Below, piece by piece: positions 1 through 13,006 of a DNA stretch of 13,771 nt. Source of the DNA: Candidatus Micrarchaeota archaeon (lineage in GTDB: Archaea; Micrarchaeota; Micrarchaeia; Anstonellales; Bilamarchaeaceae). A program made the translations under genes and the position numbers. Position 1 is the first letter of the stretch. Each line of letters starts with the position of its first letter. The notes beneath the pieces were generated by a model. That model saw only the letters and a program-made list of their open reading frames with translations, was not told the origin of the DNA and searched no databases. The DNA lies in contig JBDRIM010000010.1 in assembly GCA_043816005.1 (NCBI GenBank), forward strand, positions 1-13,771, given 5' to 3'.

Positions 1-102
1 AGATTGGCCGATTACTATTGGCCCTGAACCTATTACTAGTACTTTACCAATTTGTTGGCAAATCTTGTTATTTGACAAGGCTTTTTTTGGTTTAATTGTC
101 AT
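1..102 (-). CDS. carB: Carbamoyl-phosphate synthase large subunit, N-terminal 34 codons (runs off the left edge; not in the ORF track)
   Basis: Manual translation from ATG at 102: MTIKPKKALSNNKICQQIGKVLVIGSGPIVIGQS. KVLxIGSGPIVIGQ is the CarB N-terminal signature. An AGGTG SD lies at 118-114, and the gene is downstream of carA on the same strand. Confidence 0.93.
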   Translation of the reverse strand, partial: MTIKPKKALSNNKICQQIGKVLVIGSGPIVIGQS

Positions 103-117
103 CAGATATACTACACC

Positions 118-465
118 TTAATGTTTGCAATTTTCATCATGTTTATGTTCATGTTTGTGTTCGTGTTTATGCTCGCCTTCGTGAGTGTGTTTGTGCTCTC
201 CTTCATCTGCTTTTTGGTCTCGGGACATTTTTTGCATAAAATCAAACATAAACCTTGATCCTTCAAAGAATGAGGTTTGGGCAAGTTCTTGCCGTGACAT
301 TTCTTTCAGTTTTTTCTTTTCGGCATTCCAGAGTTCCATAAATGCACGTGCTGTTACATCATTGATAAATTGCTGGAAACTTTCTGCTATTTTTTCAGGA
401 GGTATGCAAACATGTGTTTTATCTTTTACATTTTCAGGCAAAACACCTTCATCCCCTGATAACAT
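118..465 (-). CDS. Hypothetical protein with His-rich C-terminal tail; probably the 3' part of a frameshifted gene starting at 593
   Basis: 115-aa ORF ending ...GEHKHTHEGEHKHEHKHEHKHDENCKH. It has no obvious SD of its own, has an in-frame TGA directly upstream (468-466), and overlaps the 426-593 ORF by 40 nt. Confidence 0.7.
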   Translation of the reverse strand: MLSGDEGVLPENVKDKTHVCIPPEKIAESFQQFINDVTARAFMELWNAEKKKLKEMSRQELAQTSFFEGSRFMFDFMQKMSRDQKADEGEHKHTHEGEHKHEHKHEHKHDENCKH

Positions 466-593
466 TCATAGCAAGTGTGCTCTTTATCAGTTCCTTTAGT
501 TGGGTCTAATTGACATTGATCACAAAAAGTATCATTGCCACAAAAACTGCATTTTACGTTGTTTTCATTTTTTCCTTCTAGTTTTTCAGTCAT
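426..593 (-). CDS. Cys-rich putative zinc-finger segment, 55 aa (not in the ORF track); probably the 5' part of the same frameshifted gene
   Basis: MTEKLEGKNENNVKCSFCGNDTFCDQCQLDPTKGTDKEHTCYECYQGMKVFCLKM*, with CxxC, CxxC and HxCxxC. The ATG is 9 nt after the carA stop, preceded by AGTGA. Confidence 0.75.
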   Translation of the reverse strand: MTEKLEGKNENNVKCSFCGNDTFCDQCQLDPTKGTDKEHTCYECYQGMKVFCLKM

Positions 594-602
594 AACATCA
601 CT

Positions 603-1664
603 TCAAATCAATTTTACAAATTCATCGAATATGAACCTTGTATCATGAGGGCCAGGACATGCTTCAGGATGGTATTGTATTGAAATTATATCTTTATCAG
701 TACATGCCATACCCTCAACACTTTTATCATTCACATTTATTTGAGTAAGTTCAAAATTTTCAGGTATTTTGTTAACAGCAAATCCGTGATTCTGAGTTGT
801 AATGTAAGTTCTTTTATTTTTAATATTCAGAACAGCATGATTTGAACCACGATGACCGAATTTTAATTTTGTTGTATTTCCACCAAACGCATGTGCAAGA
901 AGTTGGTGACCGAGACAGATAGCTAGAATAGGACAAATTCCACCTAATTTTTTTATTACAGAATGTGCATTCGTCAGAATTGCAGGGTCTCCTGGACCAT
1001 TCGATAACAAAATACCATCTGGTTCGATTTTCTTTATATCATCTACAGTACTCGAACACGGAAGACGATGGACCTCACAACCACGTTCAACAAGTTGGCG
1101 AATGATATTCATTTTCACACCATAGTCAATAAGTGCAATTTTCTTTTTGTTTCCCTTACCAAATATTTCACATGATTTTGTTGATACTTTTGAAACAAAA
1201 TCAATTGCAGAATAATCAAATCCATGCATTTTTCCAATAAGTTTTTTTACATCAAGTTCTTCATCTGATGTTGCAAGGATTGCAGGCATTACACCTTTAT
1301 CACGAATATGACGGACTAGGAAACGTGTATCTATACCATAAAGACCTGGTATTTTGTATTCTTTGAGAAACGAATCAATATTTTTTGTTGAGTCACGATG
1401 TTGATAATCATGACTCAGTTCACGAATTACAAAACCATTTGGTTGTATTCTATCACTTTCCTGATCGTTTTTGTTGATTCCATAATTGCCGATTAGTGGA
1501 TATGTCATGAGGAGAATTTGACCACCATAACTAGGATCGGTTAACGACTCTTGATAACCCATCATAGACGTGTTAAAGACTAGTTCACCTAGCATTTCGG
1601 TTTTTGCACCAAAACCTGATCCGTGGATCACAGTGCCGTCTTTCAAAGCTAAAACTGCTTTCAT
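603..1664 (-). CDS. carA: Carbamoyl-phosphate synthase small (glutaminase) subunit
   Basis: Motifs GELVFNTSMMGYQESLTDPSY, LSNGPGDP, ICLGHQ (catalytic Cys), TQNHGF and QYHPE. Start moved from GTG 1676 to ATG 1664, because GGTGA at 1677-1673 fits as the SD and the argF stop is at 1668-1666. Confidence 0.97.
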   Translation of the reverse strand: MKAVLALKDGTVIHGSGFGAKTEMLGELVFNTSMMGYQESLTDPSYGGQILLMTYPLIGNYGINKNDQESDRIQPNGFVIRELSHDYQHRDSTKNIDSFLKEYKIPGLYGIDTRFLVRHIRDKGVMPAILATSDEELDVKKLIGKMHGFDYSAIDFVSKVSTKSCEIFGKGNKKKIALIDYGVKMNIIRQLVERGCEVHRLPCSSTVDDIKKIEPDGILLSNGPGDPAILTNAHSVIKKLGGICPILAICLGHQLLAHAFGGNTTKLKFGHRGSNHAVLNIKNKRTYITTQNHGFAVNKIPENFELTQINVNDKSVEGMACTDKDIISIQYHPEACPGPHDTRFIFDEFVKLI

Positions 1665-1665
1665 T

Positions 1666-2634
1666 TCATTTTTCACCTAACAATTTTATCAGCAGAGCCA
1701 TTTGTGCCCACATACGATTTTCTGCTTGATCAAATACTAATGATTTTGGACCTCTGAGACCATATTCGTCAATCTCATAGTCAATGTGGGCAGGCATATC
1801 ATGCATAGAGTGTGCTTGCGATCCGGCAATATCAAGAGTTTTTTTATTTAGTTGATAAGGTAACAATGCTTTTTCTCGCCTCTCTTTTTCTTGAGCAAAT
1901 TTCGGATCACTGAAAAATTCCATATTAACCCAAGTATCAGTGTAAAGAATATCTGCACCAGAAACTGCTTTTTCAAGATTTGATTCTTCGTGATAATTTG
2001 GCTGTGCGCATAGCCATTTTAATTGTTCTTCATCAAGACTATTTGGATCGCGTTCTGGTGTGCATAATGTAAAATTTGCACCGGTTCGTACTGCTGCTAG
2101 TGAAAGAGAATTACTCACATTATTTGCAATTCCAAGATAGGTGATTTTGATGTCTTTGGTTTTGTTGAATTTTTCTTTTACTGTCATCATATCAGCTAAA
2201 GCTTGGCAAGGATGATATTTCTCACAGAGCCCATTGATCACAGGAACTCTCGAGGTTTTGGTCATTTCCATTACCGTTGCATTTTTGAGTGGTCTGACCA
2301 TTATTGCATCTACATAACGAGAGATAACTTTGGCCTCATCTTGGACTCCCCCCATGGCAAGAAGCTTTGCTTCTTGACTGTCGCGAACCTCAGTTCGCAA
2401 CATAGCAAGTTGGGTGGTTCTCCAATCAACATAAATTGCATGACCACCTAATTTGGTCATTCCAGTTTCAAAAGACAACCTTGTACGTGTAGATGTTTTC
2501 TGAAAAATCATTGCAAGAGTTTTGTGACTAAGAGTGTTTTCAAATTTTGTCGGATTCTTCTTTATTTCTAATCCCAAATCGATTACTGATTCAATCCATT
2601 TCCCATCGTAATCTTTCAATGCTACAACATGCAT
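1666..2634 (-). CDS. argF: Ornithine carbamoyltransferase (ATCase/OTCase family) with a 16-aa insertion
   Basis: Motifs FQKTSTRTRLSFE (carbamoyl-phosphate site), INGL, HPCQALAD, YTDTW, HDMPA (variant of HCLP) and FDQAENR. It lies next to carA/carB. Confidence 0.9.
   Translation of the reverse strand: MHVVALKDYDGKWIESVIDLGLEIKKNPTKFENTLSHKTLAMIFQKTSTRTRLSFETGMTKLGGHAIYVDWRTTQLAMLRTEVRDSQEAKLLAMGGVQDEAKVISRYVDAIMVRPLKNATVMEMTKTSRVPVINGLCEKYHPCQALADMMTVKEKFNKTKDIKITYLGIANNVSNSLSLAAVRTGANFTLCTPERDPNSLDEEQLKWLCAQPNYHEESNLEKAVSGADILYTDTWVNMEFFSDPKFAQEKERREKALLPYQLNKKTLDIAGSQAHSMHDMPAHIDYEIDEYGLRGPKSLVFDQAENRMWAQMALLIKLLGEK
2353..2409. repeat. In-frame double-hairpin insert in argF flanked by a 9-nt imperfect direct repeat
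   Basis: CATGGCAAG (2353-2361) and CATAGCAAG (2401-2409), period 48 nt. Hairpins: CAAGAAGC-TTT-GCTTCTTG (2358-2376) and GCGAAC-CTCA-GTTCGC (2383-2398). Confidence 0.85.
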
Positions 2635-2685
2635 ACTCTCGCCTCTCTAAATTCTAAGAACTAGGAGATTTTATCTCAGTGCTAA

Positions 2686-2693
2686 TTTATAAA
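2686..2693 (-). promoter_or_regulatory. Putative TATA box for the argF-carA-carB operon
   Basis: TTTATAAA about 52 nt upstream of the argF ATG; a GAGG SD-like sequence precedes the ATG. Confidence 0.55.
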
Positions 2694-2718
2694 GTTATTG
2701 AAATTTTTGGAACAGAAG

Positions 2719-3411
2719 TTAGGTGTATACGAATAAATTTTTAAGGAAAATAGTTGGTTCGTCAAAAGAATCATGTGGAAGAGACATAAGAACTTGTAAT
2801 GGGTCGCGTCCGGTTTTTTCTTCTATTGCACGCATGAGAAGATATCCATTAACATAAATTGGACGTTTTTCTATAGTATCTAGAACATTCAGGTCTGGAT
2901 ACAATCTTTGAGCAACTTTCTCTCCGTAATAGGTTGCAAGACCCTCATAGATAGCAAGTCCGAATGATCCAGGAATTTGCTCTGCATCGTCAGTAAGTAA
3001 ATGAGTTAATTCGTGTGCAAGAAAATAATCTAATTCTTTTGCTCTTGAAAGAACAGACGAACTGGAAATAAGGAGTATAACATTCTCACCAGTTACAGCA
3101 TAACCCGCCATTGGTCTGAACTCAGAACTTAGTATACCAGCTAAACCTCTTGCTGCAAAAAGAAATGGTGCTGCAAATGGAGTCAATGCTCTTGACAAAA
3201 CATCATCAGAAAATGAATCAGGCTTAGGGAAAAGTGCTTTTTTAGTTGGATACCATACGTTCGCAAGAAAACTTGATACAAATCTAGTATGTACGCGTAT
3301 GGTGATGTCTCCATTTATACGTCTGCCTAGAGCTTCCTCACACAGTGGTTTAATTACTTTTAATCTTTCTGAAGCTAGTTTTCTTACTTCTGAGCGTCTT
3401 AATGTTCTCAC
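2719..3411 (-). CDS. Putative zinc metallopeptidase (HEXXH plus downstream E, gluzincin-like)
   Basis: LAHELTH followed by IYEGLATY and a later YVNGY. The GTG start is about 25 nt downstream of TTTTATAAA (3444-3436), suggesting a leaderless transcript. Confidence 0.7.
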   Translation of the reverse strand: MRTLRRSEVRKLASERLKVIKPLCEEALGRRINGDITIRVHTRFVSSFLANVWYPTKKALFPKPDSFSDDVLSRALTPFAAPFLFAARGLAGILSSEFRPMAGYAVTGENVILLISSSSVLSRAKELDYFLAHELTHLLTDDAEQIPGSFGLAIYEGLATYYGEKVAQRLYPDLNVLDTIEKRPIYVNGYLLMRAIEEKTGRDPLQVLMSLPHDSFDEPTIFLKNLFVYT

Positions 3412-3484
3412 AATATAATGTATGTGGCATTTAATTTATAAAATATGGTTTTTGATGTAAGTAAAAATTAATATTTAATTGGTC

Positions 3485-4705
3485 TTAGGATTTCTTGTGA
3501 TCATCAATAATTTTTGTGGCTTCATCGTGTGCTTGTTGAAGTGGAATTTGACCGAACCTATGGCCTTCAAAATCAGCCCTAACTTGCTCTGCAAGTGGTC
3601 TGTGACTTAAAGCATATTGAAAATAACTTAACGTCTGACTTAATGGAACTAGGAGTACTTTAGCTGCATTTTCAACAGTTGCACTCATTGCTCTTGTTGC
3701 AAGTTCAACACCATTAACAGTTTCCCTTACGCCAAATAATGCGGCTTTCCTTGCTGAGACATAAAGTTGATCAAAACCTTCAAGTCGAAAATTGTTCATA
3801 AGTCCTACGACTAAGTCTAATGCCTGTTGTTTTTGCATTTCTCTAGAAACCCTCCTTATTGGATTTGATTCTATCTCAGCTGGGTCTGCTGGTCTAAAAG
3901 CCATATTTAGCATGTATGGGACACCGTCAGCAAAAGTACGGCCACCTACAACCCTACCTTCGTTTAAAGGTGGTTGCTTCCAAAATGGAATATGAGTTCC
4001 ATCTGGCATGACACAAATTATACTTGATCCGCCACTTGCCTCGTGAATTCTAAGTCTTCGAGCAGTATATTCTAATTTTGATGGATCGCCTGATTCCACA
4101 TATTCAGTTGATTGTCCTCTAAATTCTGCCTCAAAAACAGTACCTACTGCTTTGGCACCAAGATGTTCTTCCAAAACAGTGTGGCGTGCTGCGTACATAA
4201 GGCCACCAATCCCCATAGTTTGGAAATCTACAGGTGTACCAAAAGTCATTTGAGAATAAACTGCATCTGCAACAGCACCATACTGCCAATAAACCATTTT
4301 TGGTCTTGCTAGAACCGATCCCTGACTGTATGCTATAACACCCAATTCATCATGAATTATTGCAATTGCCATGAATGGATGATCTTCAAAAATCTCCCTC
4401 CTAGTATTCATATCTTCAAGTCTTTGTCTGATCAATGATGTTGGTTCTGCTTCGTTTGGATTGGGAAAGAAATGGGTGTATATACCTGGTTTAACTCCAG
4501 TTGGTTCTGATGCATCAAAACCAATACCATGAGCAGCAACTTCAGAACTAGGATCACGAATTTCTACTACTCTTAATACTTGATAAAGTGGTTTGTGAGT
4601 TATTGGATCTGGTGCTTGTAATTTTTCAGCTAATCGTCTACCAATGTAATGTTCACGAACTTGGATAGGTCTATTTTCTTGTTTAGTTATTGGTCCTGCT
4701 GCTAT
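3485..4705 (-). CDS. Hypothetical protein with a divergent GNAT acetyltransferase-like region; probable ATA start (about 406 aa)
   Basis: The frame stays open 90 codons upstream of the track's TTG (4435) to an ATA placed 4 nt after GGTGA. GNAT-like pieces: IYTHFFP..E, YGAV, FQTMGIGGLM, VFEAE, RRLRIHEASG. The fold call is inference. Confidence 0.65.
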   Translation of the reverse strand: MAAGPITKQENRPIQVREHYIGRRLAEKLQAPDPITHKPLYQVLRVVEIRDPSSEVAAHGIGFDASEPTGVKPGIYTHFFPNPNEAEPTSLIRQRLEDMNTRREIFEDHPFMAIAIIHDELGVIAYSQGSVLARPKMVYWQYGAVADAVYSQMTFGTPVDFQTMGIGGLMYAARHTVLEEHLGAKAVGTVFEAEFRGQSTEYVESGDPSKLEYTARRLRIHEASGGSSIICVMPDGTHIPFWKQPPLNEGRVVGGRTFADGVPYMLNMAFRPADPAEIESNPIRRVSREMQKQQALDLVVGLMNNFRLEGFDQLYVSARKAALFGVRETVNGVELATRAMSATVENAAKVLLVPLSQTLSYFQYALSHRPLAEQVRADFEGHRFGQIPLQQAHDEATKIIDDHKKS

Positions 4706-4736
4706 GTGATCACCAATTACTATTGCTCATAATAGG

Positions 4737-4744
4737 TATATAAA
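4737..4744 (-). promoter_or_regulatory. Putative TATA box for the 3485-4705 gene
   Basis: TTTATATA on the minus strand, about 23 nt upstream of the GGTGA SD at 4714-4710. Confidence 0.55.
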
Positions 4745-4875
4745 CGTTATTATCCATTAATTGCCACTGAAAGTATTTATAAAAGAATGGCCAAACGTAG
4801 GACAATCGTCTGGTTTAAATACCTTTGTAAGGTAATATCTAATTCGCAACTTTTGCTTATTTAGAGGTATATTAC

Positions 4876-5181
4876 ATGACTAAAGTTAGAATAAAATTAA
4901 GTGGTGAGGACCCTGCTGCCCTCGATAATGTAGTTGAACAGATAAAGAATTTATCTTCAACATTAAGTATGAGATTTATTGGTCCTGTCAGGCTACCAAG
5001 AAGAAAAATGGAGATTGCCTGTAGAAGAACTCCTTGTGGAGATGGTACTGATACTTACGAACATTGGGAAAAAAGAGTTCACAAAAGACTTTGTGATGTC
5101 GAAGGCGATGAAAAATATATCAAACAAATTCTGAGAATTAAAGTTCCAACCAATGTTTTTGTTAAAATCTCACTTGGTTAG
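4876..5181 (+). CDS. rps10: 30S ribosomal protein uS10 (archaeal type)
   Basis: Motifs RIKL, GPVRLP, RRTPCGDGTDTYEHWE.RVHKRL. GAGGT SD just upstream; TATA-like TTTAAATA at 4814-4821. Confidence 0.95.
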   Translation: MTKVRIKLSGEDPAALDNVVEQIKNLSSTLSMRFIGPVRLPRRKMEIACRRTPCGDGTDTYEHWEKRVHKRLCDVEGDEKYIKQILRIKVPTNVFVKISLG

Positions 5182-5184
5182 TTA

Positions 5185-5781
5185 TTAATCAAGATGAGAT
5201 AATATTCTTATAGCTGCATTAGAAACCTCACTGCTCAGATCTCCCCTCAATTGTATAATAGCCTGTTTGAGGGATGGGTGAACCCCAGTATTATCAACAA
5301 CTACCCGACTCTCGATTTGATTAAGTGCAAGTCTTTTTTCATTTTCACCGCCGTTAAGTAGAAGTGCTTCCAGAAAACCATACCCAATAGTCTTTACATG
5401 ATTATTATTTGAATAAAGTAAAGAACCAAAAATACCAATTATACCAAGACGTTCATAATCCGTGCCACGTAAAGCATAATATCGCAGATCAACAACCAAA
5501 GTATGGAGAAACGGATCATTATTTTCACGTTCAAATATGCCTGTGAAAAAATTTTTCAGACGAACTCTAAGATCATAATTAGAACTATTAAAGATTGCAA
5601 TAAAATTCCTTAGAAGATCTGGTTGTTGTTTAAGTTTATCAAAAAGTGCTAAATCTTGATGAACGTTTAACGCAGATGCAATCTGGCGTTTCGCCCACCA
5701 TGCAACTAATGGATTTTGATGTTTGAATCCTCGCTCTTGCTCATGTGCAACATGACCAAGTACTGCGTGTCTGATACTCAC
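5185..5781 (-). CDS. Hypothetical alpha-helical protein, possibly HEAT/ARM-like
   Basis: 198-aa ORF with a GTG start after a GGTGGGGGG SD-like run. Amphipathic helical segments, ending in DLSSEVSNAAIRIL. Confidence 0.55.
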   Translation of the reverse strand: MSIRHAVLGHVAHEQERGFKHQNPLVAWWAKRQIASALNVHQDLALFDKLKQQPDLLRNFIAIFNSSNYDLRVRLKNFFTGIFERENNDPFLHTLVVDLRYYALRGTDYERLGIIGIFGSLLYSNNNHVKTIGYGFLEALLLNGGENEKRLALNQIESRVVVDNTGVHPSLKQAIIQLRGDLSSEVSNAAIRILSHLD

Positions 5782-5930
5782 AGGATCCCCCCACCATAAT
5801 ATGGTGGATAGACGGGTTTTTGTGGATTGTGGTTTTGTGTAAAGACGAAAGATATTTAAGCCGAACTATGAAATAATCAATCCACGAATTATTACATTAG
5901 ATGAATTTTTTTAAAATATGAGGTAATGTC

Positions 5931-6042
5931 ATGGGTGCTAAACCAAGAAAATGGAAATCGATCCGAACAAGTTCGGTTCTTTCCATTTTCTCTGACGTTT
6001 TTAAGAGGTATGAATATGGGTGCTAAACCAAGAAAATGGAAA
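5931..6042 (+). repeat. Exact 27-nt direct repeat of the first 9 codons of eL41, with an inverted copy between the two repeats
   Basis: ATGGGTGCTAAACCAAGAAAATGGAAA at 5931-5957 and 6016-6042. TTTCCATTTTCT (5980-5991) is the reverse complement of AGAAAATGGAAA. Confidence 0.95.
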
Positions 6043-6129
6043 AAGAAAAACAGAATGCGCTGGAATTGGGTAACGAAAAAGCGCAAACGACTTAGAAAAA
6101 AAATTAAACGAAGAGTAGGTGAACTCTAG
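6016..6129 (+). CDS. rpl41e: Ribosomal protein eL41 (L41e), 37 aa
   Basis: MGAKPRKWKKKNRMRWNWVTKKRKRLRKKIKRRVGEL matches the archaeal L41e pattern PRKWKKKxRMRWxWxKKRxRRL. GAGGTA SD at 6005-6010. Confidence 0.88.
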   Translation: MGAKPRKWKKKNRMRWNWVTKKRKRLRKKIKRRVGEL

Positions 6130-6517: not shown

Positions 6518-6644
6518 GTATCCACCATTTATCTGATATTACCATACATAAAAAATATAAACTGATGTTTCGTTTTTTTAATTTGTTAAACTGTATTAGA
6601 CACAACTTTAAATATTGTTGGATAAAATAATATATTGTGTTGTC

Positions 6645-7466
6645 ATGACTAATATGAGATTTCAAAGCTTAGCTAGATCCATCCCAACAAAAGCGCAGAC
6701 TGCAGCACGAGCAGTACAAAGACTTGAGAATTGGGGAACTTATCTTATGGACTGTGTTGGCCTTGCAGGTTCAGATAGATTAGTATACACCTTAAGAGAT
6801 GGAACTAAATTTGCAGTTAGAGCAGGAACTGTTGATAGGTATGTTCTCAACGAAGTTGTTTTTAGACGTGGATATTTCCCCGATGGTTTTTCCATAGAAA
6901 AAAATGATACCGTAGTTGAGATTGGAGGCCACATTGGAATATTTACTGTTTTAGCTGCAAGAATGGCACCACAGGGAAAAGTTTATACTTTTGAACCAAA
7001 TCCAGATAACTTTCAGATGCTTGGTACAAATCTTGCCATGAACCGAGTTGGTAATGTAATTGCAAGGCAGGAAGCAGTATCCGATACCAGTGGTTCAGTA
7101 TCTTTATACCTTGATCATAGAAACACTGGCGGGCATTCGATACACCAAAGTGATAACACTGGAACTGGAATAACTGTGAGAACTACTACTTTGGCTGACA
7201 TAATTAGTCAGAATAGACTGGAAAAAATTGATTTCCTGAAAATGGATTGTGAAGGAGCAGAATACGAAATATTCAGAAGTGTGCCATTGGAAGTTTTAGC
7301 AATGGTAAGAAAAATAGCAATGGAATGTCATGATCAGGGTGAAGGAAGAAATAGTAGATTGATGGTAGGTTTACTCCGTAGACATGGATTTGATGTTGTT
7401 GTTAAAACCGAACGATTCGATGATAAATTATCGATGATTTATGCAACGCGGACCTATGATAACTAA
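6645..7466 (+). CDS. FkbM-family SAM-dependent methyltransferase
   Basis: Motifs VEIGGHIGIFT, VYTFEPNP and IDFLKMDCEGAE. Start placed at ATG 6645, about 30 nt after TTTAAATA at 6608-6615; the track's TTG start overlaps that box. Confidence 0.9.
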   Translation: MTNMRFQSLARSIPTKAQTAARAVQRLENWGTYLMDCVGLAGSDRLVYTLRDGTKFAVRAGTVDRYVLNEVVFRRGYFPDGFSIEKNDTVVEIGGHIGIFTVLAARMAPQGKVYTFEPNPDNFQMLGTNLAMNRVGNVIARQEAVSDTSGSVSLYLDHRNTGGHSIHQSDNTGTGITVRTTTLADIISQNRLEKIDFLKMDCEGAEYEIFRSVPLEVLAMVRKIAMECHDQGEGRNSRLMVGLLRRHGFDVVVKTERFDDKLSMIYATRTYDN

Positions 7467-7517
7467 AAAAGCACAGAGAATAGGTTTTTAAACTCGTCTC
7501 ATAAAAGAATAGTTCTA

Positions 7518-7544
7518 CCCGTAGTACCACTTCAAGTGGGAGGG
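7518..7544 (+). promoter_or_regulatory. Putative uL1-binding autoregulatory leader (rRNA mimic) overlapping the rpl1 SD
   Basis: CCC-GTAGTA-CCAC-TTCAA-GTGG-GA-GGG: two helices around an asymmetric loop. It contains the GUGGGAGG and UACCAC strands known from the 23S rRNA L1 site. TATA-like TTTTAAA at 7486-7492. Confidence 0.75.
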
Positions 7545-7551
7545 ATTTATT

Positions 7552-8184
7552 ATGGATAAGAAAAAACTTATAGAAGCTATTAGTAAGATTCTCGAAGAAA
7601 AAGGAAAGAGAAAATTCAAACAGAGTGTTGAGATAATCATCAATATGAGAGGGATTGACTTCTCAAAAAGTGAAAACAGACTCAACATAGATATTGTTCT
7701 GCCAAAAGGTAAAGGCGGCAAGGAACTTAAATCAGCAGTTTTTGCCGAAGGTACCATGGCTGATGAAGCCAAAAAAGCAGGTGCAGACTTGGTAATAACA
7801 CCAGATGCAATTCCAGCATATGCAGAATCATCAAAAGTAAGTGATCTTGCAGATAATTATTTCATGTTATCTCAACCCAACCTTATGGGTGCAGTTGCAA
7901 AATCACTTGGTCAATATTTAGGTAAACGAGGTAAACTTCCAAAACCAATAATAGGGAATATTTCTGATCTAATAAAAAGATCGAAAAACAGTGTCAGAAT
8001 TGTTTCGAAAGGTAAACACCTTCCAGTTGCACAAGCACTTATAGGCACTGAGATAATGGATACTGATGACCTTGTTGACAATGCTGAAGCAGTATACGAC
8101 GCATTAAAAGGCAAGGTAAATGAAGGCAACATCAAGTCAGTTTATGTTAAATTGACTATGAGTAAGCCAGTTAGAGTTGTTTAG
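7552..8184 (+). CDS. rpl1: 50S ribosomal protein uL1
   Basis: Motifs KRKFKQSVEIIINMRGIDF, LGQYLGKRGKLPKP and NIKSVYVKLTMSKP. First gene of the L1-L10-L12 cluster. Confidence 0.97.
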   Translation: MDKKKLIEAISKILEEKGKRKFKQSVEIIINMRGIDFSKSENRLNIDIVLPKGKGGKELKSAVFAEGTMADEAKKAGADLVITPDAIPAYAESSKVSDLADNYFMLSQPNLMGAVAKSLGQYLGKRGKLPKPIIGNISDLIKRSKNSVRIVSKGKHLPVAQALIGTEIMDTDDLVDNAEAVYDALKGKVNEGNIKSVYVKLTMSKPVRVV

Positions 8185-8194
8185 GGTGGATTAA

Positions 8195-9052
8195 ATGACA
8201 TACAAAACTGACGTTAACAAAAAAGAGATAAAGAAAAAAGCAGAGCAAGTTCAAAAAGCTATTGCAGACATGAAAAAATATAAAACAGTTGCAATGCTTG
8301 ATTTGAGAAAGCTACCTGATTCACTCTTCCAATCATTAAGAAAGAAGATTAGAGAAAACGGAGGCCTGGTTTTAGTTCTTAAAAAACCAGTCGTAAGTAG
8401 AGTGCTTGCAGCAAACAAAAAACTTGCTGAGAAAGTTGGCGAATGTAACAAACCAATTGCTCTTATTTACACAAACCAATCTGCTTATGAGTTAAATTCC
8501 TTCTTCAAACAAAACAAAAAGACGAGAGCAGCAAAGTCAGGTGATATTGCAGTTGTTGACATTATTGTTCCAGAAGGAGAAACTGATCTTCCAGCTGGTC
8601 CAGCTTTATCTGAACTTAAGGCAGCGGGTCTTAATGCACAGATAAGAGCAGGTAAAATTGCAATAGTAAAAGAGAGCACAGTTGCCAAGGCAGGGGAGAA
8701 AATAACAGATGCAAAGGTCAAAGCACTCCAAACACTTAGTGTTCGTCCATTTGAGGTCATGGCCAATTTAATTTTTGGATTCGATGGAGAGTACATTTAC
8801 TCAAGACAACTTTTGGATATCGGAGATAGCATAAATGCAGATGTTGCAAATGGATTATCACAGGCATTGAATGTTTCATTGAATGTTAATTATCCAACCA
8901 AACAGAACATTAATTTACTGCTTGGAAGTGCCGTAAAGCAATCGATAAATTTTTCGCTAAATGGTAATTTATATTCATCAAACTCAATCGGGCAGCTTCT
9001 CTCCTCTGCAATAAGGCAGGGGATGGCTTGTGAGAGTTTGAATAAGAAATAA
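8195..9052 (+). CDS. rplP0: 50S ribosomal protein uL10 (acidic P0)
   Basis: AKSGDIA..DIIVPEGETDLPAGP (archaeal/eukaryal domain II) and LSLNVNYPT. Lies between uL1 and L12, with a GGTGG SD. Confidence 0.95.
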   Translation: MTYKTDVNKKEIKKKAEQVQKAIADMKKYKTVAMLDLRKLPDSLFQSLRKKIRENGGLVLVLKKPVVSRVLAANKKLAEKVGECNKPIALIYTNQSAYELNSFFKQNKKTRAAKSGDIAVVDIIVPEGETDLPAGPALSELKAAGLNAQIRAGKIAIVKESTVAKAGEKITDAKVKALQTLSVRPFEVMANLIFGFDGEYIYSRQLLDIGDSINADVANGLSQALNVSLNVNYPTKQNINLLLGSAVKQSINFSLNGNLYSSNSIGQLLSSAIRQGMACESLNKK

Positions 9053-9062
9053 AAGGAGATTA

Positions 9063-9084
9063 AAAAAGAACCTTGGTTCTTTTT
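9063..9084. repeat. Perfect 10-bp inverted repeat in the P0-L12 spacer
   Basis: AAAAAGAACC-TT-GGTTCTTTTT, ending 2 nt before the GAGGTG SD of L12. Confidence 0.85.
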
Positions 9085-9097
9085 ATGAGGTGTAAAA

Positions 9098-9403
9098 ATG
9101 AAAGTAGATCCATATTTGCACGCTGTGCTTGTTTTGCATGGCGCTGGGAAAGAAGTTAGTAAGGAAAGCATTTTAGCTGTTGTAAAGGCAAGTGGTGCTG
9201 AAGTCGATGAGGCTCATGCAAAAGTACTTGCTGAAGCAGTTAAAGACGTAAACTTCGAAGACCTTCTAAAACAATCAGCAATGGTTGCAGCAGCTCCAGT
9301 TGCAGCAGCTCCAGCAGCTGAAGGAAAGAAAGAAGAAAAGAAGGAAGATGAAGGAAAGAAAGAAGAACAAGCAGCAGAAGGTTTGGCTAACTTGTTCGGG
9401 TAA
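9098..9403 (+). CDS. rpl12: 50S ribosomal stalk protein P1/L12 (archaeal)
   Basis: YLHAVLVLH.AGKEV N-terminus, Ala/Pro hinge, charged stretch and C-terminal GLANLFG. Confidence 0.97.
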   Translation: MKVDPYLHAVLVLHGAGKEVSKESILAVVKASGAEVDEAHAKVLAEAVKDVNFEDLLKQSAMVAAAPVAAAPAAEGKKEEKKEDEGKKEEQAAEGLANLFG

Positions 9404-9453
9404 GCGTAGCGAACCCGGACAATCTTGAACTTGTTCAAGGCTTGTTCGGTTAA
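9391..9453 (+). repeat. Double hairpin bracketed by a duplication of the rpl12 3' end
   Basis: CTTGTTCGGGTAA (9391-9403) and CTTGTTCGGTTAA (9441-9453), period 50 nt. Hairpins: TTGTTCGGGT/ACCCGGACAA (9392-9422) and CTTGAAC-TT-GTTCAAG (9424-9439). Confidence 0.85.
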
Positions 9454-9477
9454 TTTTCTTTTTTAATTTTTTATTTT
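9454..9477 (+). terminator. Oligo-T tracts, probable terminator of the L1-P0-L12 operon
   Basis: TTTTCTTTTTTAATTTTTTATTTT just after the last gene and its hairpins. Confidence 0.6.
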
Positions 9478-9543
9478 AATTGTTATAACTAGTTTTGAAA
9501 AAAATAAGATAAGAGTTATAAGGTACATAGAAGAATAATTCTT

Positions 9544-9852
9544 ATGATAAAAAGGCCGAAAATCAGCAAAGAGGAACTGATAGCAGACCTGATATACATT
9601 TTAATCGGTGCAATTGTTGCATTCATTGCAATATTCATATTCGACATACACTGGAGTTTCTATCCTGGAGAAACAGTATTGCCACCAAGCAGACATGTTT
9701 TCCAAACTCATGATCCGTATTATTTTGGTATCCCAATTGGTGCAATTGTTGGCTTTTTCATATTGAAACTACTTTCATTTGCCTTTATGGAAGATGAAAT
9801 AGCACATGAAAAGATGGTAAAAACCAAAAAATCAGTGAAAAAAAAGCAATGA
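9544..9852 (+). CDS. Small membrane protein, two predicted TM helices, unknown function
   Basis: Hydrophobic LIYILIGAIVAFIAIFIF and FGIPIGAIVGFFILKLLSFAF segments with a basic tail. TTATAA lies about 25 nt upstream (leaderless-type spacing). Confidence 0.7.
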   Translation: MIKRPKISKEELIADLIYILIGAIVAFIAIFIFDIHWSFYPGETVLPPSRHVFQTHDPYYFGIPIGAIVGFFILKLLSFAFMEDEIAHEKMVKTKKSVKKKQ

Positions 9853-9885
9853 AACCTATTTATTTCTAGCTTCTGTTAGTAAAGT

Positions 9886-10818
9886 ATGCACAGGGATATA
9901 AAAAAAATTATAGGTGATATAAAATCCCTAAAGATACAAGGCGCAAGGAATGTTGCTAAAGCTGCCGTAAATGGGCTTGCTATAGCAGCAAAAAAATCAA
10001 AAACAAAAACAGCTCAAGCATTCAGTCATGAAATGCGTGATGTAGCTAATGCACTTGCCACTAGCAGACCAACAGAACCGATGATGAGAAATATGCTTGA
10101 TGAGGGACTGTATTTCATAGAGCAAGCAATTAAATCAAAGAAAACCACCAAATCATCATTAGTAAAACTATTAGTAAATCACGAAAAACAAATGATCAAC
10201 AAAATGGAATTGGATGCTAAGCGCTTGGCACAATATGGTGCAAAACTTATCCCTGACGATGCACTCGTATTAACTTATTGTCATTCTTCCACTACAACAA
10301 GAATTTTAATTGAAGCTAAAAGAATGCGTAAAAAATTTTCAGTGGTTGCATTTGAAACACGACCAAGATTTCAAGGGAGAATAACTGCAGCAGAACTTGC
10401 AAAGGCTGGTATAGATGTTACTCTTACAGTAGATGGTGCTATGTATCTATTTATGAAAAAAGCAGATATTGTTATCGTAGGAGCTGATTCAATAACATCA
10501 CGAGGAGATTTGATAAATAAAATTGGCACTGCAACAATTGCGCATATAGCAAAAATGAATGACGTCTCGTTTTACAGTGCAGCTGAATTATCAAAATATA
10601 GTGCAATGACAATTTTTGGCACGCGTGAAAAAATAGAGGAGAGAAACTCAAAAGAAGTTTGGGAGAAACCACCAAAGGGAGTGACAATAAGAAATCCTGC
10701 ATTCGAAGCAACCGCAGCAAAATACATAAATGGTTATATAACTGAGATAGGAGTAATACCACCACAATCATTCTTCACAATGGCAACTAATAAATTAGGT
10801 ATAAAATTATATGAATAA
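9886..10818 (+). CDS. e2b2: Ribose-1,5-bisphosphate isomerase (eIF2B-like family)
   Basis: Motifs IQGA, RPTEP, LTYCHS (catalytic Cys), ETRPRFQG, VGADSI (catalytic Asp), NKIGT and RNPAFE. Directly upstream of AMP phosphorylase. Confidence 0.9.
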   Translation: MHRDIKKIIGDIKSLKIQGARNVAKAAVNGLAIAAKKSKTKTAQAFSHEMRDVANALATSRPTEPMMRNMLDEGLYFIEQAIKSKKTTKSSLVKLLVNHEKQMINKMELDAKRLAQYGAKLIPDDALVLTYCHSSTTTRILIEAKRMRKKFSVVAFETRPRFQGRITAAELAKAGIDVTLTVDGAMYLFMKKADIVIVGADSITSRGDLINKIGTATIAHIAKMNDVSFYSAAELSKYSAMTIFGTREKIEERNSKEVWEKPPKGVTIRNPAFEATAAKYINGYITEIGVIPPQSFFTMATNKLGIKLYE

Positions 10819-10830
10819 ATAGGTGAAAAT

Positions 10831-12393
10831 ATGGTAGACTACGTTGAATCTGAACAAAAAAAAGTAGATGTCTGGAAATTCAAAAAATATGCATGCAAAG
10901 TGAAACCAATAGATATTTTCACTGGTAAAAACATAATTGTCCTAAATAAAGAAGAAGCACAGGAGCATGATATTTATTCAGGATATAGGACTGAGTTGAA
11001 ACATGATGGAACAAGTATTATTGCAATAGTAGATGTAAGTGATGAGATAGTTGAACGAGGCGAAGTTGGAATTTTCCGTGATTTAACAAGCTGGCATAAA
11101 CTCAAGAAAGGGGAAATAGTAGAAATAGTTCATATGAACAGACCAGAATCTATAACATATATCAAAAAGAAATTAGATAAAGGTGTACTCAACACTAAAG
11201 AAATTAGAACGATAGTAAAGGAAATAATGCAGGATAGATTAAGCGAAATAGAAACATCTGCATGGATAGCAGCTGCATACATAAATGGATTCTCAGATGA
11301 TGAAATTATATCGTTGGCAGAAGCAACTGTTGATTCTGGCGATCAGTTGGATCTGGGTAAGCATCCCGTTCTGGACAAACATTGTATAGGTGGCGTAGCA
11401 GGAAATAGAACGACTATGTTGGTAGTTCCCATAATTGCAGCTCTGGGTATGTACATGCCAAAAACATCATCACGATCAATAACCTCAGCTGCAGGAACAG
11501 CTGATACAATGGAAGTTTTGGCTGATGTTACGTTTAATATGGAAGAACTTCGTTCAATGGTATTGAAAGCAAAAGGTGCAATTGTTTGGGGTGGAGGAAT
11601 GAAACTTGCCCCAGTCGATGACAAGCTCATAAGAGTCAGACATCCGTTAAGTCTTGATCCAGAAGGTATGCTTTTAGCAAGTATCCTTGGTAAGAAAAAA
11701 AGTGTTGGTGCAGAATACGCTGTAATTGATATTCCTGTTGGGCGTGGTGTTAAAGTACCTTACATGGAACGTGGAAACGAACTTGCAAAACATTTCATAA
11801 GTGTTGGAGATAAACTTGGAATAAAGATAGAAGCTTTGATAACAGATGGTGCAGAGCCGATTGGAAATGGGATTGGACCGGCACTTGAATGTATAGATGT
11901 GTTAGAAGTACTTGAGGGTAAAGGTCCAGATGATTTAAAGCATAAAAGCCTTTTACTAACAGGCAAATTGCTTGAGTTATGTGGGAAAGTGGATAAAGGC
12001 AAAGGATATGGAATTGCAGAGAATACACTTATGAATGGTAAAGCAATGGCTAAATTCAGAGAGATAATTGAATTGCAAGGTGGTGATCCAAAAATAAAAT
12101 CATCTGATATTACACTTGGATCAGCTAGCCACACCGTAACTGCAGAAACATCCGGAAGTATCTTTCATATAGACAATAAAATAATGGCAAAAATAGCAAG
12201 AATTGCTGGTTCTCCGCGTGACAAGGGTGCTGGCGTATTCCTCCATAGGCTTCGGGGTGATAGAGTAGAAGTTGGAGACAAACTTTATACTATACATGCC
12301 GAAAGCGGAACAACATTGGATTTTGCCTTAAAAGCAATCAAAGACCTTGAACCAATAGAGATGAGGAAAATGTTGTTAGGAAGTCTGCAGTAA
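10831..12393 (+). CDS. deoA: AMP/NMP phosphorylase (thymidine phosphorylase family, archaeal long form)
   Basis: Motifs DKHCIGGVAGNRTT, PKTSSRSITSAAGTADTMEVL, PLSLDP and NGIGPALE, with an extra N-terminal domain. GGTGA SD 4 nt before the ATG. Confidence 0.95.
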   Translation: MVDYVESEQKKVDVWKFKKYACKVKPIDIFTGKNIIVLNKEEAQEHDIYSGYRTELKHDGTSIIAIVDVSDEIVERGEVGIFRDLTSWHKLKKGEIVEIVHMNRPESITYIKKKLDKGVLNTKEIRTIVKEIMQDRLSEIETSAWIAAAYINGFSDDEIISLAEATVDSGDQLDLGKHPVLDKHCIGGVAGNRTTMLVVPIIAALGMYMPKTSSRSITSAAGTADTMEVLADVTFNMEELRSMVLKAKGAIVWGGGMKLAPVDDKLIRVRHPLSLDPEGMLLASILGKKKSVGAEYAVIDIPVGRGVKVPYMERGNELAKHFISVGDKLGIKIEALITDGAEPIGNGIGPALECIDVLEVLEGKGPDDLKHKSLLLTGKLLELCGKVDKGKGYGIAENTLMNGKAMAKFREIIELQGGDPKIKSSDITLGSASHTVTAETSGSIFHIDNKIMAKIARIAGSPRDKGAGVFLHRLRGDRVEVGDKLYTIHAESGTTLDFALKAIKDLEPIEMRKMLLGSLQ

Positions 12394-12771
12394 TCGTGCA
12401 TGCTCGATCATAATGCATTTATTCATCACAATGTTCAGCCCTGCTTTTCTTGCAAGTTCTGCTGCAGGTATTACACTTAACTGCATCCAGATTGTTTTTG
12501 CCTTAGCTTGAATAGCTTCTTCAACTATAGGCATAACATCTTTGCTTTTTCTAAAAATATCAACAATATCAATTTTTTCTTTAATTTTATTAAGAGAAGT
12601 ATATGACTTTAGACCACACCATTCTTCTATATTCGGATTAACCGGAAAAATTTTGTAACCATGTTTCAAAAGATAGCTCGCAACACAAAAACTTGGACGA
12701 TCTGGATTATCTGAAAGACCAACAATGGCAATTGTTTTTGATTCTTGTAGAATAAATTTCAGATTAACCAT
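12376..12771 (-). CDS. CoA-binding protein (YccU-like)
   Basis: Motifs TIAIVGLSDNPDRPS, PVNP, IDIVDIFR, IWMQL and VMNKC. Start set at ATG 12771 (MVNLK...) because the track's extension runs through the TATA box. Confidence 0.9.
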   Translation of the reverse strand: MVNLKFILQESKTIAIVGLSDNPDRPSFCVASYLLKHGYKIFPVNPNIEEWCGLKSYTSLNKIKEKIDIVDIFRKSKDVMPIVEEAIQAKAKTIWMQLSVIPAAELARKAGLNIVMNKCIMIEHARLLQTS

Positions 12772-12790
12772 GGTAAAACCAAAACGCCTA

Positions 12791-12800
12791 AATTTATAAG
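12791..12800. promoter_or_regulatory. TATA element in the 55-nt divergent gap between the CoA-binding gene and tRNA-Tyr
   Basis: AATTTATAAG reads TTTATAAG on + and TTATAAAT on -, at promoter-like distance from both starts. Confidence 0.65.
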
Positions 12801-12826
12801 AACTTCCCTGCACGTTTTCATTCTAT

Positions 12827-12988
12827 CCCGTCGTAGCTCAAAGCCTTGAAAGGGTTCTTTCAAGATTTACCCGCCAAGGCGTGTAACGGTAGAGCGGTCG
12901 GCTGTAGTTTTGATTTACTCGATTTTGACGAGTTATATCTACGCCAGTAGATACCGACAGGTTGCTTGTTCAAATCAGGCCGACGGGA
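12827..12988 (+). tRNA. trnY: tRNA-Tyr(GTA) with two introns (12842-12886 at position 15/16; 12908-12952 at 37/38); CCA not encoded
   Basis: Acceptor CCCGTCG/CGACGGG with discriminator A (C1-G72, A73: archaeal Tyr identity). D-stem GCTC/GAGC, anticodon stem GTCGG/CCGAC, loop CT-GTA-G|A, variable loop AGGTT, T-arm GCTTG-TTCAAAT-CAGGC. Confidence 0.93.
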
Positions 12989-13006
12989 CTTCCCTATTAT
13001 AAACGA

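Follow-up and report, generated by a model that had tools for sequence, protein, structure and literature searches.

Hairpin-rich inserts in a Micrarchaeota genome comprise one recent repeat insertion and older shared structures

Hairpin-rich segments lie within or beside housekeeping and tRNA genes at six sites in a 13,771-nt stretch of a Candidatus Micrarchaeota genome (contig JBDRIM010000010.1 of assembly GCA_043816005.1, positions 1 to 13,771; hereafter the window). We find that these features belong neither to one class nor to one age: alongside one recent repeat insertion there are shared structures of greater age. Our best reading is that the window displays the products of a single lineage-wide habit acting at the level of DNA, as opposed to six copies of one transposon. 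As the process behind it we tentatively favor, at slightly less than even confidence, the copying of hairpin cassettes by short-homology template switching, with the products filtered by selection and sometimes co-opted.

Results

Six hairpin-rich sites of different age and kinship

The genome that contains the window (G000) is represented by an assembly that is 86% complete, and the closest species compared with it was G023. An earlier note on this DNA, written from sequence alone, had placed hairpin-rich segments at six sites; their coordinates and anatomy were confirmed and are listed here, together with a palindrome that lies between two of the ribosomal-protein genes.

43-81, reverse strand: carB insert, 39 nt (13 aa), in frame, with two small hairpins, CTTGT..ACAAG and TTTGCCAA..TTGGTAAA; the N-terminal part of carB is read from the reverse strand of 1-102
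2353-2409, reverse strand: argF insert, 48 nt (16 aa), in frame, a two-hairpin module with a hairpin at 2358-2376, the linker GACTGTC at 2376-2382 and a hairpin at 2383-2398
5917-6042, forward strand: structured leader of eL41/eS32, whose main ORF is 6016-6129
Within the leader: native Shine-Dalgarno box and copy A of the first nine codons, 5931-5957; inner hairpin, 5963-5976; inverted copy, 5980-5991; second Shine-Dalgarno box, about 6003-6009; copy B, 6016-6042; upstream ORF of 31 codons, 5931-6026
9063-9084, no strand assigned: perfect palindrome AAAAAGAACC-TTGG-GGTTCTTTTT in the interval that separates P0 from P1, with AAAGGAGATT before it
9391-9453, forward strand: P1 (rpl12) insert, 50 nt at the 3' end of the gene, with the last codons and stop at 9391-9403, an inverted copy at 9413-9422, the palindrome CTTGAAC-TT-GTTCAAG at 9424-9439, and a second gene end and stop at 9441-9453, then a T-rich tract
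12827-12988, forward strand: tRNA-Tyr(GTA) gene with two introns, matched by ARAGORN only after removal of 12842-12886 and 12908-12952
12842-12886, forward strand: D-loop intron, 45 nt, placed with an ambiguity of 2 nt; its GCCTTG/CAAGGC helix encloses the hairpin CTTGAAAG-GGTT-CTTTCAAG
12908-12952, forward strand: anticodon-loop intron, 45 nt, at the canonical position (37/38)

Empty sites of the kind that the note had expected in relatives are present; G023, for example, lacks five of the six features (48 nt in argF, 85 nt at eL41/eS32, 50 nt at P1, 39 nt in carB and the 45-nt D-loop intron of tRNA-Tyr). The note's broader proposal, that the six sites belong to one family, did not survive comparison, and the sites are not all recent. 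Significant paralogues were found for the argF insert only, and none was detected in the G000 genome for the carB insert, the P1 insert or the D-loop intron. As for age, the eL41 structure occurs at 7 of 28 readable loci in the genus, the D-loop intron is common to at least four species, and the carB insert has a counterpart in G049; recent insertion had been entertained for both the eL41 leader and the D-loop intron and was rejected after the wider comparison. Folding energy sets the argF site apart as the sole one clearly beyond shuffled sequence (z -3.65; 0 of 200 shuffles), P1 (z -2.30; 5 of 200) and the D-loop intron (z -2.05; 7 of 200) giving moderate values and the eL41 leader (z -1.58; 13 of 200), carB (z -1.41; 22 of 200) and the anticodon-loop intron (z -1.17; 30 of 200) weak ones.

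A search of the whole window with the Rfam 15 covariance models gave no match at E values up to 1. Several neighboring ORFs of the window have no Pfam or NCBIfam family, and a search of five relatives with the 137-aa ORF at 6107-6517 gave no match. Literature searches turned up no description of hairpin inserts in Micrarchaeota; the word 'Micrarchaeota' does not occur in the main text of PMC11602168, whose supplements may list such elements.

Hairpins built from host sequence are in excess across the genome

The recurrent GAAC..GTTC core singled out in the note is far more frequent than composition predicts: the window contains five instances of GAAC-N2-4-GTTC against 0.44 expected, a number reached in none of 200 shuffles, and GAACG..CGTTC occurs 45 times genome-wide against 2.1 expected. 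Perfect hairpins number 953, as compared with 583-613 in shuffles, and those with stems of at least 9 number 239, as compared with 43-57. The excess of perfect hairpins that share the core is restricted to the lineage and falls in intergenic regions, tRNA introns, gene ends and occasionally in frame within genes; long-stem hairpins are mostly intergenic.

The note had also described direct repeats of host sequence accompanied by an inverted host copy that serves as a hairpin arm, and genome-wide this arrangement proves to be far above chance. Direct repeats of at least 12 nt spaced 30-160 nt apart number 122, against 20 in shuffles; 23 of these enclose a perfect hairpin (shuffles, 0) and 13 an inverted copy of the repeat (shuffles, 0-1), with 19 of the 23 hairpin-enclosing pairs lying at gene starts, at stops or between genes. 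Comparison of G000 with 578 kb of G023 revealed 45 indels of at least 20 nt, in both directions. Among the 41 that could be analyzed, 18 contain a perfect hairpin (mean of 1.8 in random segments), and in six a hairpin arm of at least 9 nt derives from pre-existing host sequence (mean of 0.37 in shuffles). The duplications vary in length (5-6 nt, as with GCCAT, 9, 13 and 27-41 nt), which fits re-entry at variable points rather than a fixed staggered cut. The carB insert and the D-loop intron have no host-derived arm and no direct repeat longer than 2-4 nt.

The argF insert belongs to a dispersed two-hairpin repeat

The insert in argF is a recent one, peculiar to G000: of the 20 orthologues compared, the other 19 are all without it. 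It is in frame and free of stops, lengthening the predicted protein by 16 residues, and is flanked by a 9-nt direct repeat (CATGGCAAG at 2353-2361 and CATAGCAAG at 2401-2409, 48 nt apart), while its ends are not inverted repeats of one another. Paralogues lie at C27 and C60, and the insert is a member of a dispersed repeat with the layout ATGG-hairpin-GACWGTC-hairpin-CATGG, of which we count 24 copies against 1-2 in shuffles. The repeat is restricted to the archaeal family of the host, at 0 to 14 copies per genome, G121 (14 pattern hits) and G023 being among the members with high copy number. Only a few pairs among the 24 structural copies exceed 85% identity. Since structure defines the family better than sequence does, an nhmmer profile built from 14 seed modules retrieved no more than about 20 copies. 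The repeat is also mosaic, with an identical first hairpin joined to three different second hairpins, and copies at non-orthologous loci of G023 are 79-88% identical with compensatory changes in their stems. An origin of the CATGG flanks as a restriction-site effect was considered and rejected, CCATGG not being depleted (512 observed, 510 expected).

Twenty-four dispersed copies whose flanks and linker are conserved, restricted to one clade at widely differing copy number and present at non-orthologous loci in two species, are what might be expected if the inserts were non-autonomous elements (MITE-, REP- or RPE-like) moved by a transposase or recombinase, unrecognized or missing from the assembly, that recognizes hairpins and inserts at CATGG-like sites. 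Duplication of GCCAT/CATGG in three independent events fits such an enzyme, for which the ATGG/CATGG flanks and the GACWGTC linker could be recognition sites, and insertion sequences are frequently lost from incomplete assemblies such as this one. Against it, the note's remark that no mobilizing enzyme is encoded in the window extends to the genome as far as assembled (86%): there is no match to a Y1/HUH transposase (PF01797; the control search matched 6 of 14 known genomes) or to TnpB (PF07282), and self-comparison of the genome revealed no multi-copy insertion sequence. Terminal inverted repeats are lacking and the target duplications range from 5 to 41 nt; moreover, many inserts have no paralogue at all, and in many the host's own flank supplies a hairpin arm. 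We regard this account as unlikely, with a chance that is nonetheless appreciable. The REP/RAYT-type mechanism that the note had raised found no support, no RAYT having been found in the 86% complete genome.

Inserts at gene ends and the eL41/eS32 leader

The carB insert, likewise stop-free and in frame, adds 13 residues to the predicted protein; it is missing at 26 of 28 readable loci in the genus and has a longer homologous version in G049. At the end of P1, a 13-nt direct repeat with a spacing of 50 carries the duplicated gene end; in the minimum-energy fold, it is with the second copy that the inverted copy pairs. Analogous P1-end structures that cannot be aligned with this one occur in G022/G044, G012 and G052. 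The palindrome between P0 and P1 is a repeat dispersed through the genus.

The most elaborate of the six features precedes a 37-aa ORF that has no match in Pfam or NCBIfam and was identified as eL41/eS32 by its similarity to four solved archaeal L41e/eS32 chains of 36-37 aa (E from 6.7e-5 to 1.9e-4). A direct repeat of 41 nt (27 exact) recurs here at a spacing of 85, and the 12-nt inverted copy at 5980-5991 is 100% complementary both to 5946-5957 and to 6031-6042. The leader shows covariation: the inverted segment and copy B form a helix in which pairing reaches 97.6% and three pairs have changed on both sides, and RNAalifold predicts this helix unaided. The upstream ORF is open for 21-31 codons in seven of seven species. 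A twin cassette lies at a second locus of the same genome (C73), where the eL41 hairpin and inverted segment appear twice in tandem, 88% identical over 42 nt. Each copy stands immediately behind the same AAAATGGAAA, and a Shine-Dalgarno box and a duplicated start region come after it. The inverted segment of the eL41 leader has two alternative pairing partners, the decoy start region of the conserved upstream ORF and codons 6-9 of the true gene, an arrangement that looks like a translational switch. The leader is a concrete and testable candidate for a new element of archaeal translational control, uniting a conserved upstream ORF with an anti-start segment and a decoy start region.

Covariation and the conserved upstream ORF of this leader, together with the compensatory changes in the D-loop intron described below, stop-codon hairpins that arose at the P1 end in several species and the mostly intergenic location of long-stem hairpins, raise the question of whether any common insertion process is needed. 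The sites might instead be separate functional RNA structures shaped by selection (an eL41/eS32 leader, a 3' stabilizer or terminator at P1, and tRNA introns) that share only a preference for stable hairpins. This account leaves the in-frame argF and carB inserts unexplained, as it does the five instances of the GAAC..GTTC core in the window and the near-identical cassette at an unrelated gene, and it sits poorly with the hairpins in 18 of 41 interspecies indels and with the patchy distribution over the species tree. We consider it improbable, if still deserving of some weight.

Two tRNA-Tyr introns of different kinds

In the raw window, the tRNA-Tyr gene was missed by both ARAGORN and Rfam; once the introns are removed, ARAGORN reports tRNA-Tyr(gta) with intron i(37,45). 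The note had suggested that hairpin insertion could give rise to tRNA introns, a proposal that fits one of the two. The D-loop intron is of the hairpin class and patchy in distribution, being found in G047, G048 and G017 as well as here, and in G048 its stem bears a compensatory change (GCCATG/CATGGC). Scored for a relaxed bulge-helix-bulge, it has three of the four central pairs and an inner helix of 6 bp and lacks an outer helix; its removal yields a canonical tRNA. The anticodon-loop intron, by comparison, is an ordinary conserved intron: its bulge-helix-bulge scores 9, with four of four central pairs and five outer pairs, it is 94% identical in G023, and an intron occupies the same place in all 14 tRNA-Tyr genes read.

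The presence of the same hairpin class inside the D-loop intron suggested that the inserts in protein genes might themselves be bulge-helix-bulge introns, cut from mRNA by a tRNA splicing endonuclease of broad specificity, for which the cbf5 mRNA intron of Crenarchaeota is a precedent; the 85-nt and 50-nt inserts, moreover, are not multiples of three. When all splice pairs that restore the ancestral sequence were scored, argF reached 5, carB 4, P1 7 (17 tried) and eL41 8 (44 tried), all at chance level as against 9 for the anticodon-loop intron, and the in-frame, own-start or own-stop solutions make splicing unnecessary, so that this possibility appears very slight. Slighter still is the prospect that the inserts are chimeras of assembly or amplification: the depth of public contigs is low (2-4) and the P1 region at 9320-9486 was skipped as a repeat in the contig alignment, but independent contigs from two studies span the argF insert without a single difference, genomes of other species that were assembled independently carry homologous inserts, and every insert preserves its gene. 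One public contig spans copy A of the eL41 leader, the hairpin and 12 nt of copy B. Among the public contigs aligned to G000, there was neither a fresh insertion nor a contig joining across any insert as an empty allele.

Discussion

Template switching between cassettes and host sequence would account for these observations as follows. Short hairpin cassettes with the stem core GAAC..GTTC would be copied to new places during replication or repair, when synthesis quits the host template at a short match and proceeds on a cassette at another locus, or on the opposite strand of the same locus, the latter producing the inverted host copy that becomes a hairpin arm. The host template would then be re-entered upstream of the point of exit, often at a Shine-Dalgarno box or at CATGG, leaving a host duplication of 5-41 nt. 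Selection would retain only those inserts that leave the gene working: in proteins, in-frame loops such as those of argF (48 nt) and carB (39 nt); at gene ends, a restored start preceded by the eL41/eS32 cassette and a Shine-Dalgarno box, or the restored end and stop of P1; and in the D-loop of tRNA-Tyr, an insert that the tRNA splicing endonuclease could remove. Ages differ among the products: the carB insert is shared with one sister species, and the eL41 leader and D-loop intron are old and patchy, which the ease of precise loss between direct repeats would explain.

Several observations pull the other way. At some sites, selection for function is indicated by covariation, by conserved upstream ORFs and by the survival of inserts that would be easily deleted, and it could suffice without a common process; and the patchy distribution on the species tree (five changes for five taxa) could reflect lateral transfer. 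A bolder proposition, and one that we consider rather unlikely, is that ultrasmall archaea move DNA in a way so far undescribed, by means of cassettes with a target-complementary segment, a variable flank duplication and a mirror copy, such that one process seeds tRNA introns, protein loops and translational leaders, the decoy-start leader of eL41/eS32 among them.

If template switching of this kind does operate, hairpin cassettes would be a main source of indels in these reduced genomes, to judge from the indels between the two species, and one raw material would supply extra loops in conserved enzymes, non-canonical tRNA introns and ready-made regulatory leaders. The combination of variable-length duplication and mirror copy is a footprint that is not known from any described transposition mechanism. 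At a practical level, standard tRNA finders and gene callers fail on genomes with such inserts.

Among known systems, Rickettsia palindromic elements are reportedly short, lineage-specific palindromes found between genes and, as additional translated loops, in frame within housekeeping genes. The inserts of argF and carB, whose translation is predicted, resemble them in lying in frame in protein genes. The G000 units differ in being smaller and mosaic, at about 40-50 nt, mostly without paralogues, with variable duplications and inverted flank copies and in an archaeal host. REP/BIME elements with their RAYT share with the G000 inserts an extragenic location of hairpins, mosaic arrays, conserved linkers and stems kept by compensatory change; the G000 inserts differ in their variable target duplications, in the absence of a Y1_Tnp or TnpB match and in occurring also within genes and tRNA introns. 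Elements derived from IS200/IS605 insert 3' of a defined motif of four or five nucleotides and leave no target duplication, unlike the inserts described here, with direct duplications of 5-41 nt and no PF01797 or PF07282 match in the genome. MITEs differ too, the argF insert lacking terminal inverted repeats and the target duplications having no fixed length.

The eL41 leader resembles leader-peptide attenuators and autoregulated ribosomal-protein leaders in its three-part 1:2 or 2:3 pairing and short upstream ORF, which traverses segment 2 and terminates at the start of the main ORF. It departs from them in that segments 1 and 3 duplicate the gene's own first nine codons, in the recurrence of the cassette at another gene and in having no Rfam match. 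By this analogy, the leader would work like an attenuator and is not a member of that class.

The origin of non-canonical tRNA introns is a long-standing question, and intron transposition occurs in Thermoproteales. Two papers describe, respectively, the splicing of non-canonical tRNA introns in ultrasmall archaea by a three-unit epsilon2 endonuclease (PMC3239211) and the gain of tRNA introns through mobile DNA (PMC3293823). The gene studied here follows known archaeal examples in having two introns in tRNA-Tyr, one of them in the D-loop, in its patchy gain and loss among close species and in being missed by standard finders; its D-loop intron is unlike them in that its hairpin is of the class also seen in repeats between genes and in the inserts of protein genes, with no integrase-type element adjoining.

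A further parallel comes from mutations that arise in replication. In template-switch mutations (quasipalindrome or duplication-inversion-duplication), one event yields a direct duplication together with an inverted local copy, creating a perfect hairpin with one pre-existing arm, and many of the G000 inserts share both the host-derived arm and the direct duplication. Unlike the products of a simple template switch, their cassettes, with GAAC..GTTC hairpins and the GACWGTC linker, recur across loci and species; the switching behind them would need to be both ectopic and local, and to occur with unusual frequency.

Six inserts in the window and their empty sites

All six features described in the earlier note, namely segments at the carB N-terminus, in argF, at the eL41/eS32 start and at the P1 (rpl12) 3' end, together with two tRNA-Tyr introns, were confirmed by repeat search, by inspection and by tRNA recognition after intron removal. 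The archaeal genome that contains them (G000) comprises 1.26 Mb in 85 contigs, with 36.5% G+C and 86% completeness. The window is its complete contig C10 (13,771 nt) and carries the following genes.

1-102, reverse strand: carB N-terminus (gene call in the window)
6016-6129: 37-aa ORF, eL41/eS32 (similarity to solved archaeal L41e/eS32 chains)
Coordinates not given here: carA; argF; S10; FkbM-type methyltransferase; ribosomal proteins L1, P0 and P1; IF-2B-family protein; AMP-phosphorylase-like protein; CoA-binding protein; tRNA-Tyr; pyridine-nucleotide oxidoreductase

The 37-aa ORF matches the solved chains, which are of equal length, with E values of 6.7e-5 to 1.9e-4. Elsewhere in the window, the overlapping reverse-strand ORFs 426-593 and 118-465 (together 118-593) look like one frameshift-split gene, the second with a His-rich tail at its end; contigs from runs X1 and X3 have one additional A behind position 447. 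A 413-codon open frame (3485-4735, reverse strand), for which no Pfam family was found, lacks ATG, GTG and TTG in its first ~97 codons and has an ATG at its 5' end, but in a different frame; either a frameshift or a non-standard start may account for this.

The argF insert consists of two perfect hairpins joined by the linker GACTGTC and flanked by 9-nt repeats spaced 48 nt apart. Repeat search also returned a direct repeat with 50-nt spacing at the P1 end and a 41-nt repeat (27 nt exact) with 85-nt spacing at the eL41 start, where a 12-nt inverted copy is 100% complementary to both repeat copies. Five GAAC-N2-4-GTTC motifs occur in the window, as compared to 0.44 expected (at least five in 0 of 200 shuffles); the fifth, GAACTTCGTTC at 11545-11555, lies within the AMP-phosphorylase-like gene. 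Folding energies relative to shuffles are clearly beyond chance for argF only (z -3.65), moderate for P1 (z -2.30) and the D-loop intron (z -2.05), and weak for eL41 (z -1.58), carB (z -1.41) and the anticodon-loop intron (z -1.17).

Public contigs of two studies bridge the argF insert with zero differences, and one spans copy A of the eL41 start, the hairpin and the first part of copy B. No empty alleles were seen in these contigs, which span the argF insert and part of the eL41 segment but not the P1 insert. Empty sites are present in the closest species compared (G023), which is syntenic with the window at 72-86% nucleotide identity; the inserts of argF (48 nt), eL41 (85 nt), P1 (50 nt) and carB (39 nt) are all absent there, as is the D-loop intron. 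The argF insert, sited in a conserved TTQ-LAMGG loop, is missing from all 19 other orthologues, and the carB insert is missing from 26 of 28 readable loci and takes a longer form in G049. Hairpins formed by the last codons and stop of P1 plus an inverted copy also occur in relatives including G022, G044, G012 and G052; those of G022 and G044 are homologous to each other, and those of the relatives cannot be aligned with the G000 hairpin. We also observed that G023 is longer than G000 by ~6.4 kb between P1 and the next shared gene (window 9403/9538) and by ~3 kb between argF and P0.

A dispersed family of two-hairpin modules

Hairpins are in excess genome-wide, with 953 perfect ones (stem at least 7, loop 3-7) as compared to a range of 583-613 over three shuffles. 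Those with stems of at least 9 number 239, as compared to 43-57; on a crude ORF-based gene map that scores 91% of the genome as coding, 149 of them fall between genes and a further 28 do so in part. The stem GAACG..CGTTC was counted 45 times, where 2.1 would be expected.

A structural scan for two-hairpin modules (ATGG-hairpin-(G)ACTGYC-hairpin-NNCATGG) found 24 in G000, 1-2 in shuffles and six in G023, of which 578 kb were scanned. The 24 include the argF insert, which has paralogues on contigs C27 (90% over 31 nt) and C60. Composition is mosaic, in that an identical first hairpin is found with three different second hairpins. The G023 copies lie at non-orthologous loci and are 79-88% identical to those of G000, with compensatory changes that keep the stems perfect. 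Across the 176 genomes of the order, the pattern GACWGTCNNGAACN{2,8}GTTC matches in 24 (five single matches for a backwards control), among them 18 of the other 39 in the genus. G121, from another genus of the family, is also among the 24, with 14 matches to the module pattern; one 24-nt form is present there five times letter for letter, suggesting recent activity of the family. The earlier idea of a single insert family is partly supported: there is a real repeat family, which includes the argF insert, but the six sites are not copies of one sequence family. The eL41, D-loop and carB inserts are shared with other species.

Hairpin repeats also lie in coding and spacer DNA. A 727-aa ORF (G000:C27:13319-15502) contains two in-frame two-hairpin modules (~13553-13606 and 13980-14026), and the P0-P1 spacer (window 9047-9087) holds AAAGGAGATTNAAAAAG plus a GAACC..GGTTC palindrome, a repeat dispersed through the genus whose matches include 22 in G045, 15 in G023, 11 in G049 and eight in G000.

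The eL41/eS32 leader and its twin cassette

Among 30 genus loci, 28 of them readable, seven share the eL41 architecture (G000, G011, G041, G047, G010, G012 and G017), with an identical breakpoint after codon 9. The native Shine-Dalgarno box and nine codons come first; then follow a hairpin whose stem is of the GAAC..GTTC type, codons 6-9 in inverted copy, another Shine-Dalgarno box and the nine codons repeated. Copies A and B co-vary inside each species. Pairing reaches 92.9% in the helix of copy A with the inverted segment and 97.6% in the helix of the inverted segment with copy B, where three pairs have changed on each side; in slid controls it falls to 25-63%. These counts support both alternative helices. 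RNAalifold, unaided, predicts the second helix, which in this model would enclose the second Shine-Dalgarno box and the true start codon. In all seven species, an upstream ORF read from copy A is open for 21-31 codons across the hairpin and inverted segment; its end falls somewhere from the inverted segment to 11 nt beyond the main start. We consider this upstream region a candidate translational switch.

On a P0+L1 tree, in which G016 was scored as a non-bearer though it gave no match in the eL41 search, the five bearers included are unclustered and need five changes. Lateral transfer is a possible explanation of this scattered distribution; descent from an old origin followed by many losses is plausible, since the 27-nt direct repeats would make precise loss easy.

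The hairpin and inverted segment were found again at G000:C73:11560-11880 (88% identity over 42 nt), and the cassette is therefore not peculiar to eL41. Two tandem units occur there, each directly preceded, as at eL41, by AAAATGGAAA, which at the C73 gene contains the start codon; each unit runs from a GAAC..GTTC hairpin through TTTCCATTTT and a Shine-Dalgarno box to a duplicated start region. The cassette appears to have been copied from gene to gene, the genes having in common a 10-nt word to which the cassette's inverted segment is complementary. These tandem cassettes, on the reverse strand, precede a gene starting ATGGAAATAGCAGGC, and their first upstream ORF has 20 codons and a stop 2 nt ahead of the next start.

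Introns of tRNA-Tyr and other tRNAs

The tRNA-Tyr(GTA) gene is recognised only once 12842-12886 and 12908-12952 are removed. The anticodon-loop intron, with a bulge-helix-bulge scan score of 9, is present in all 14 tRNA-Tyr genes read and is kept in G023 at 94% identity. The D-loop intron, which scores 7 in a relaxed form, is missing from 10 of the 14 and occurs also in G047, G048 and G017; match coordinates suggest its presence in G003, G006 and G053. In G048 the outer helix of this intron, GCCTTG/CAAGGC, is changed to GCCATG/CATGGC, and in G047 and G048 its inner hairpin is of the GAACG..CGTTC class. Second matches of 80-85% to the tRNA-Tyr D-arm and D-loop intron, at G003:C66:389-453 and G049:C6:567087-567151, may represent another tRNA with a related intron.

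Other tRNA introns of G000 are filled with hairpins of the same classes. Those at C22:27345-27615, C24:6500-6730 and C85:27420-27690 are chained perfect hairpins NNNNCTTTTT-NNN-AAAAAGNNNN; across the whole genome, ARAGORN with introns allowed detects only 20 tRNAs.

Origin of the inserts

Comparison of G000 with G023 over ~355 kb of alignment identified 45 indels of at least 20 nt, 20 in G000 and 25 in G023. Eighteen of the 41 analysable indels contain a perfect hairpin of at least 7 bp (random segments: mean 1.8, maximum 6), and in six a hairpin arm of at least 9 nt derives from pre-existing host flank (shuffles: mean 0.37, maximum 4). Genome-wide, direct repeats of at least 12 nt lying 30-160 nt apart number 122, as compared to 20 in shuffles; 23 surround a perfect hairpin (shuffles 0) and 13 an inverted copy of the repeat (shuffles 0-1). 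Nineteen of the 23 hairpin-enclosing repeats lie at gene starts, stops or in intergenic DNA, whereas repeats without hairpins are mostly coding. At G000:C40:12540-12830, one gene start is duplicated three times, nested, with a perfect hairpin between each; the unit is GCCAT plus a ~25-nt 5' leader, suggesting repeated events at a single locus.

The mechanism of insertion is one that we still infer. Template switching at short homology, in replication or repair, would produce the inserts, and seems a better fit than a fixed-cut transposase because the duplications span 5-41 nt, hairpin arms are built from host flanks, re-entry falls at Shine-Dalgarno boxes or CATGG, and cassettes are mosaic. 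No Y1 transposase, TnpB or multi-copy insertion sequence was found in the 86% complete genome, and CCATGG is not depleted; as the assembly is incomplete, an enzyme that moves the inserts may have escaped detection. As for the single hairpin-inserting process proposed in the earlier note, the underlying observation and the hairpin excess stand, but the inserts differ in age and class. Bulge-helix-bulge introns can be set aside for the protein genes, where scan scores do not exceed chance; we accordingly take the argF and carB inserts to be translated, and those of eL41 and P1 to be bypassed through their own start or stop.

Relation to known systems

Literature searches found no account of such hairpin inserts in Micrarchaeota. 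The closest analogues include REP/BIME elements, Rickettsia palindromic elements and template-switch mutations, although not every defining feature of each is present here. The same applies to another close analogue, the non-canonical archaeal tRNA introns (PMC3239211, PMC3293823). The main text of a prokaryote-wide MITE census names DPANN once and Micrarchaeota never (PMC11602168). Set beside these systems, the inserts are small palindromic repeats of a new form, with an unusual footprint.
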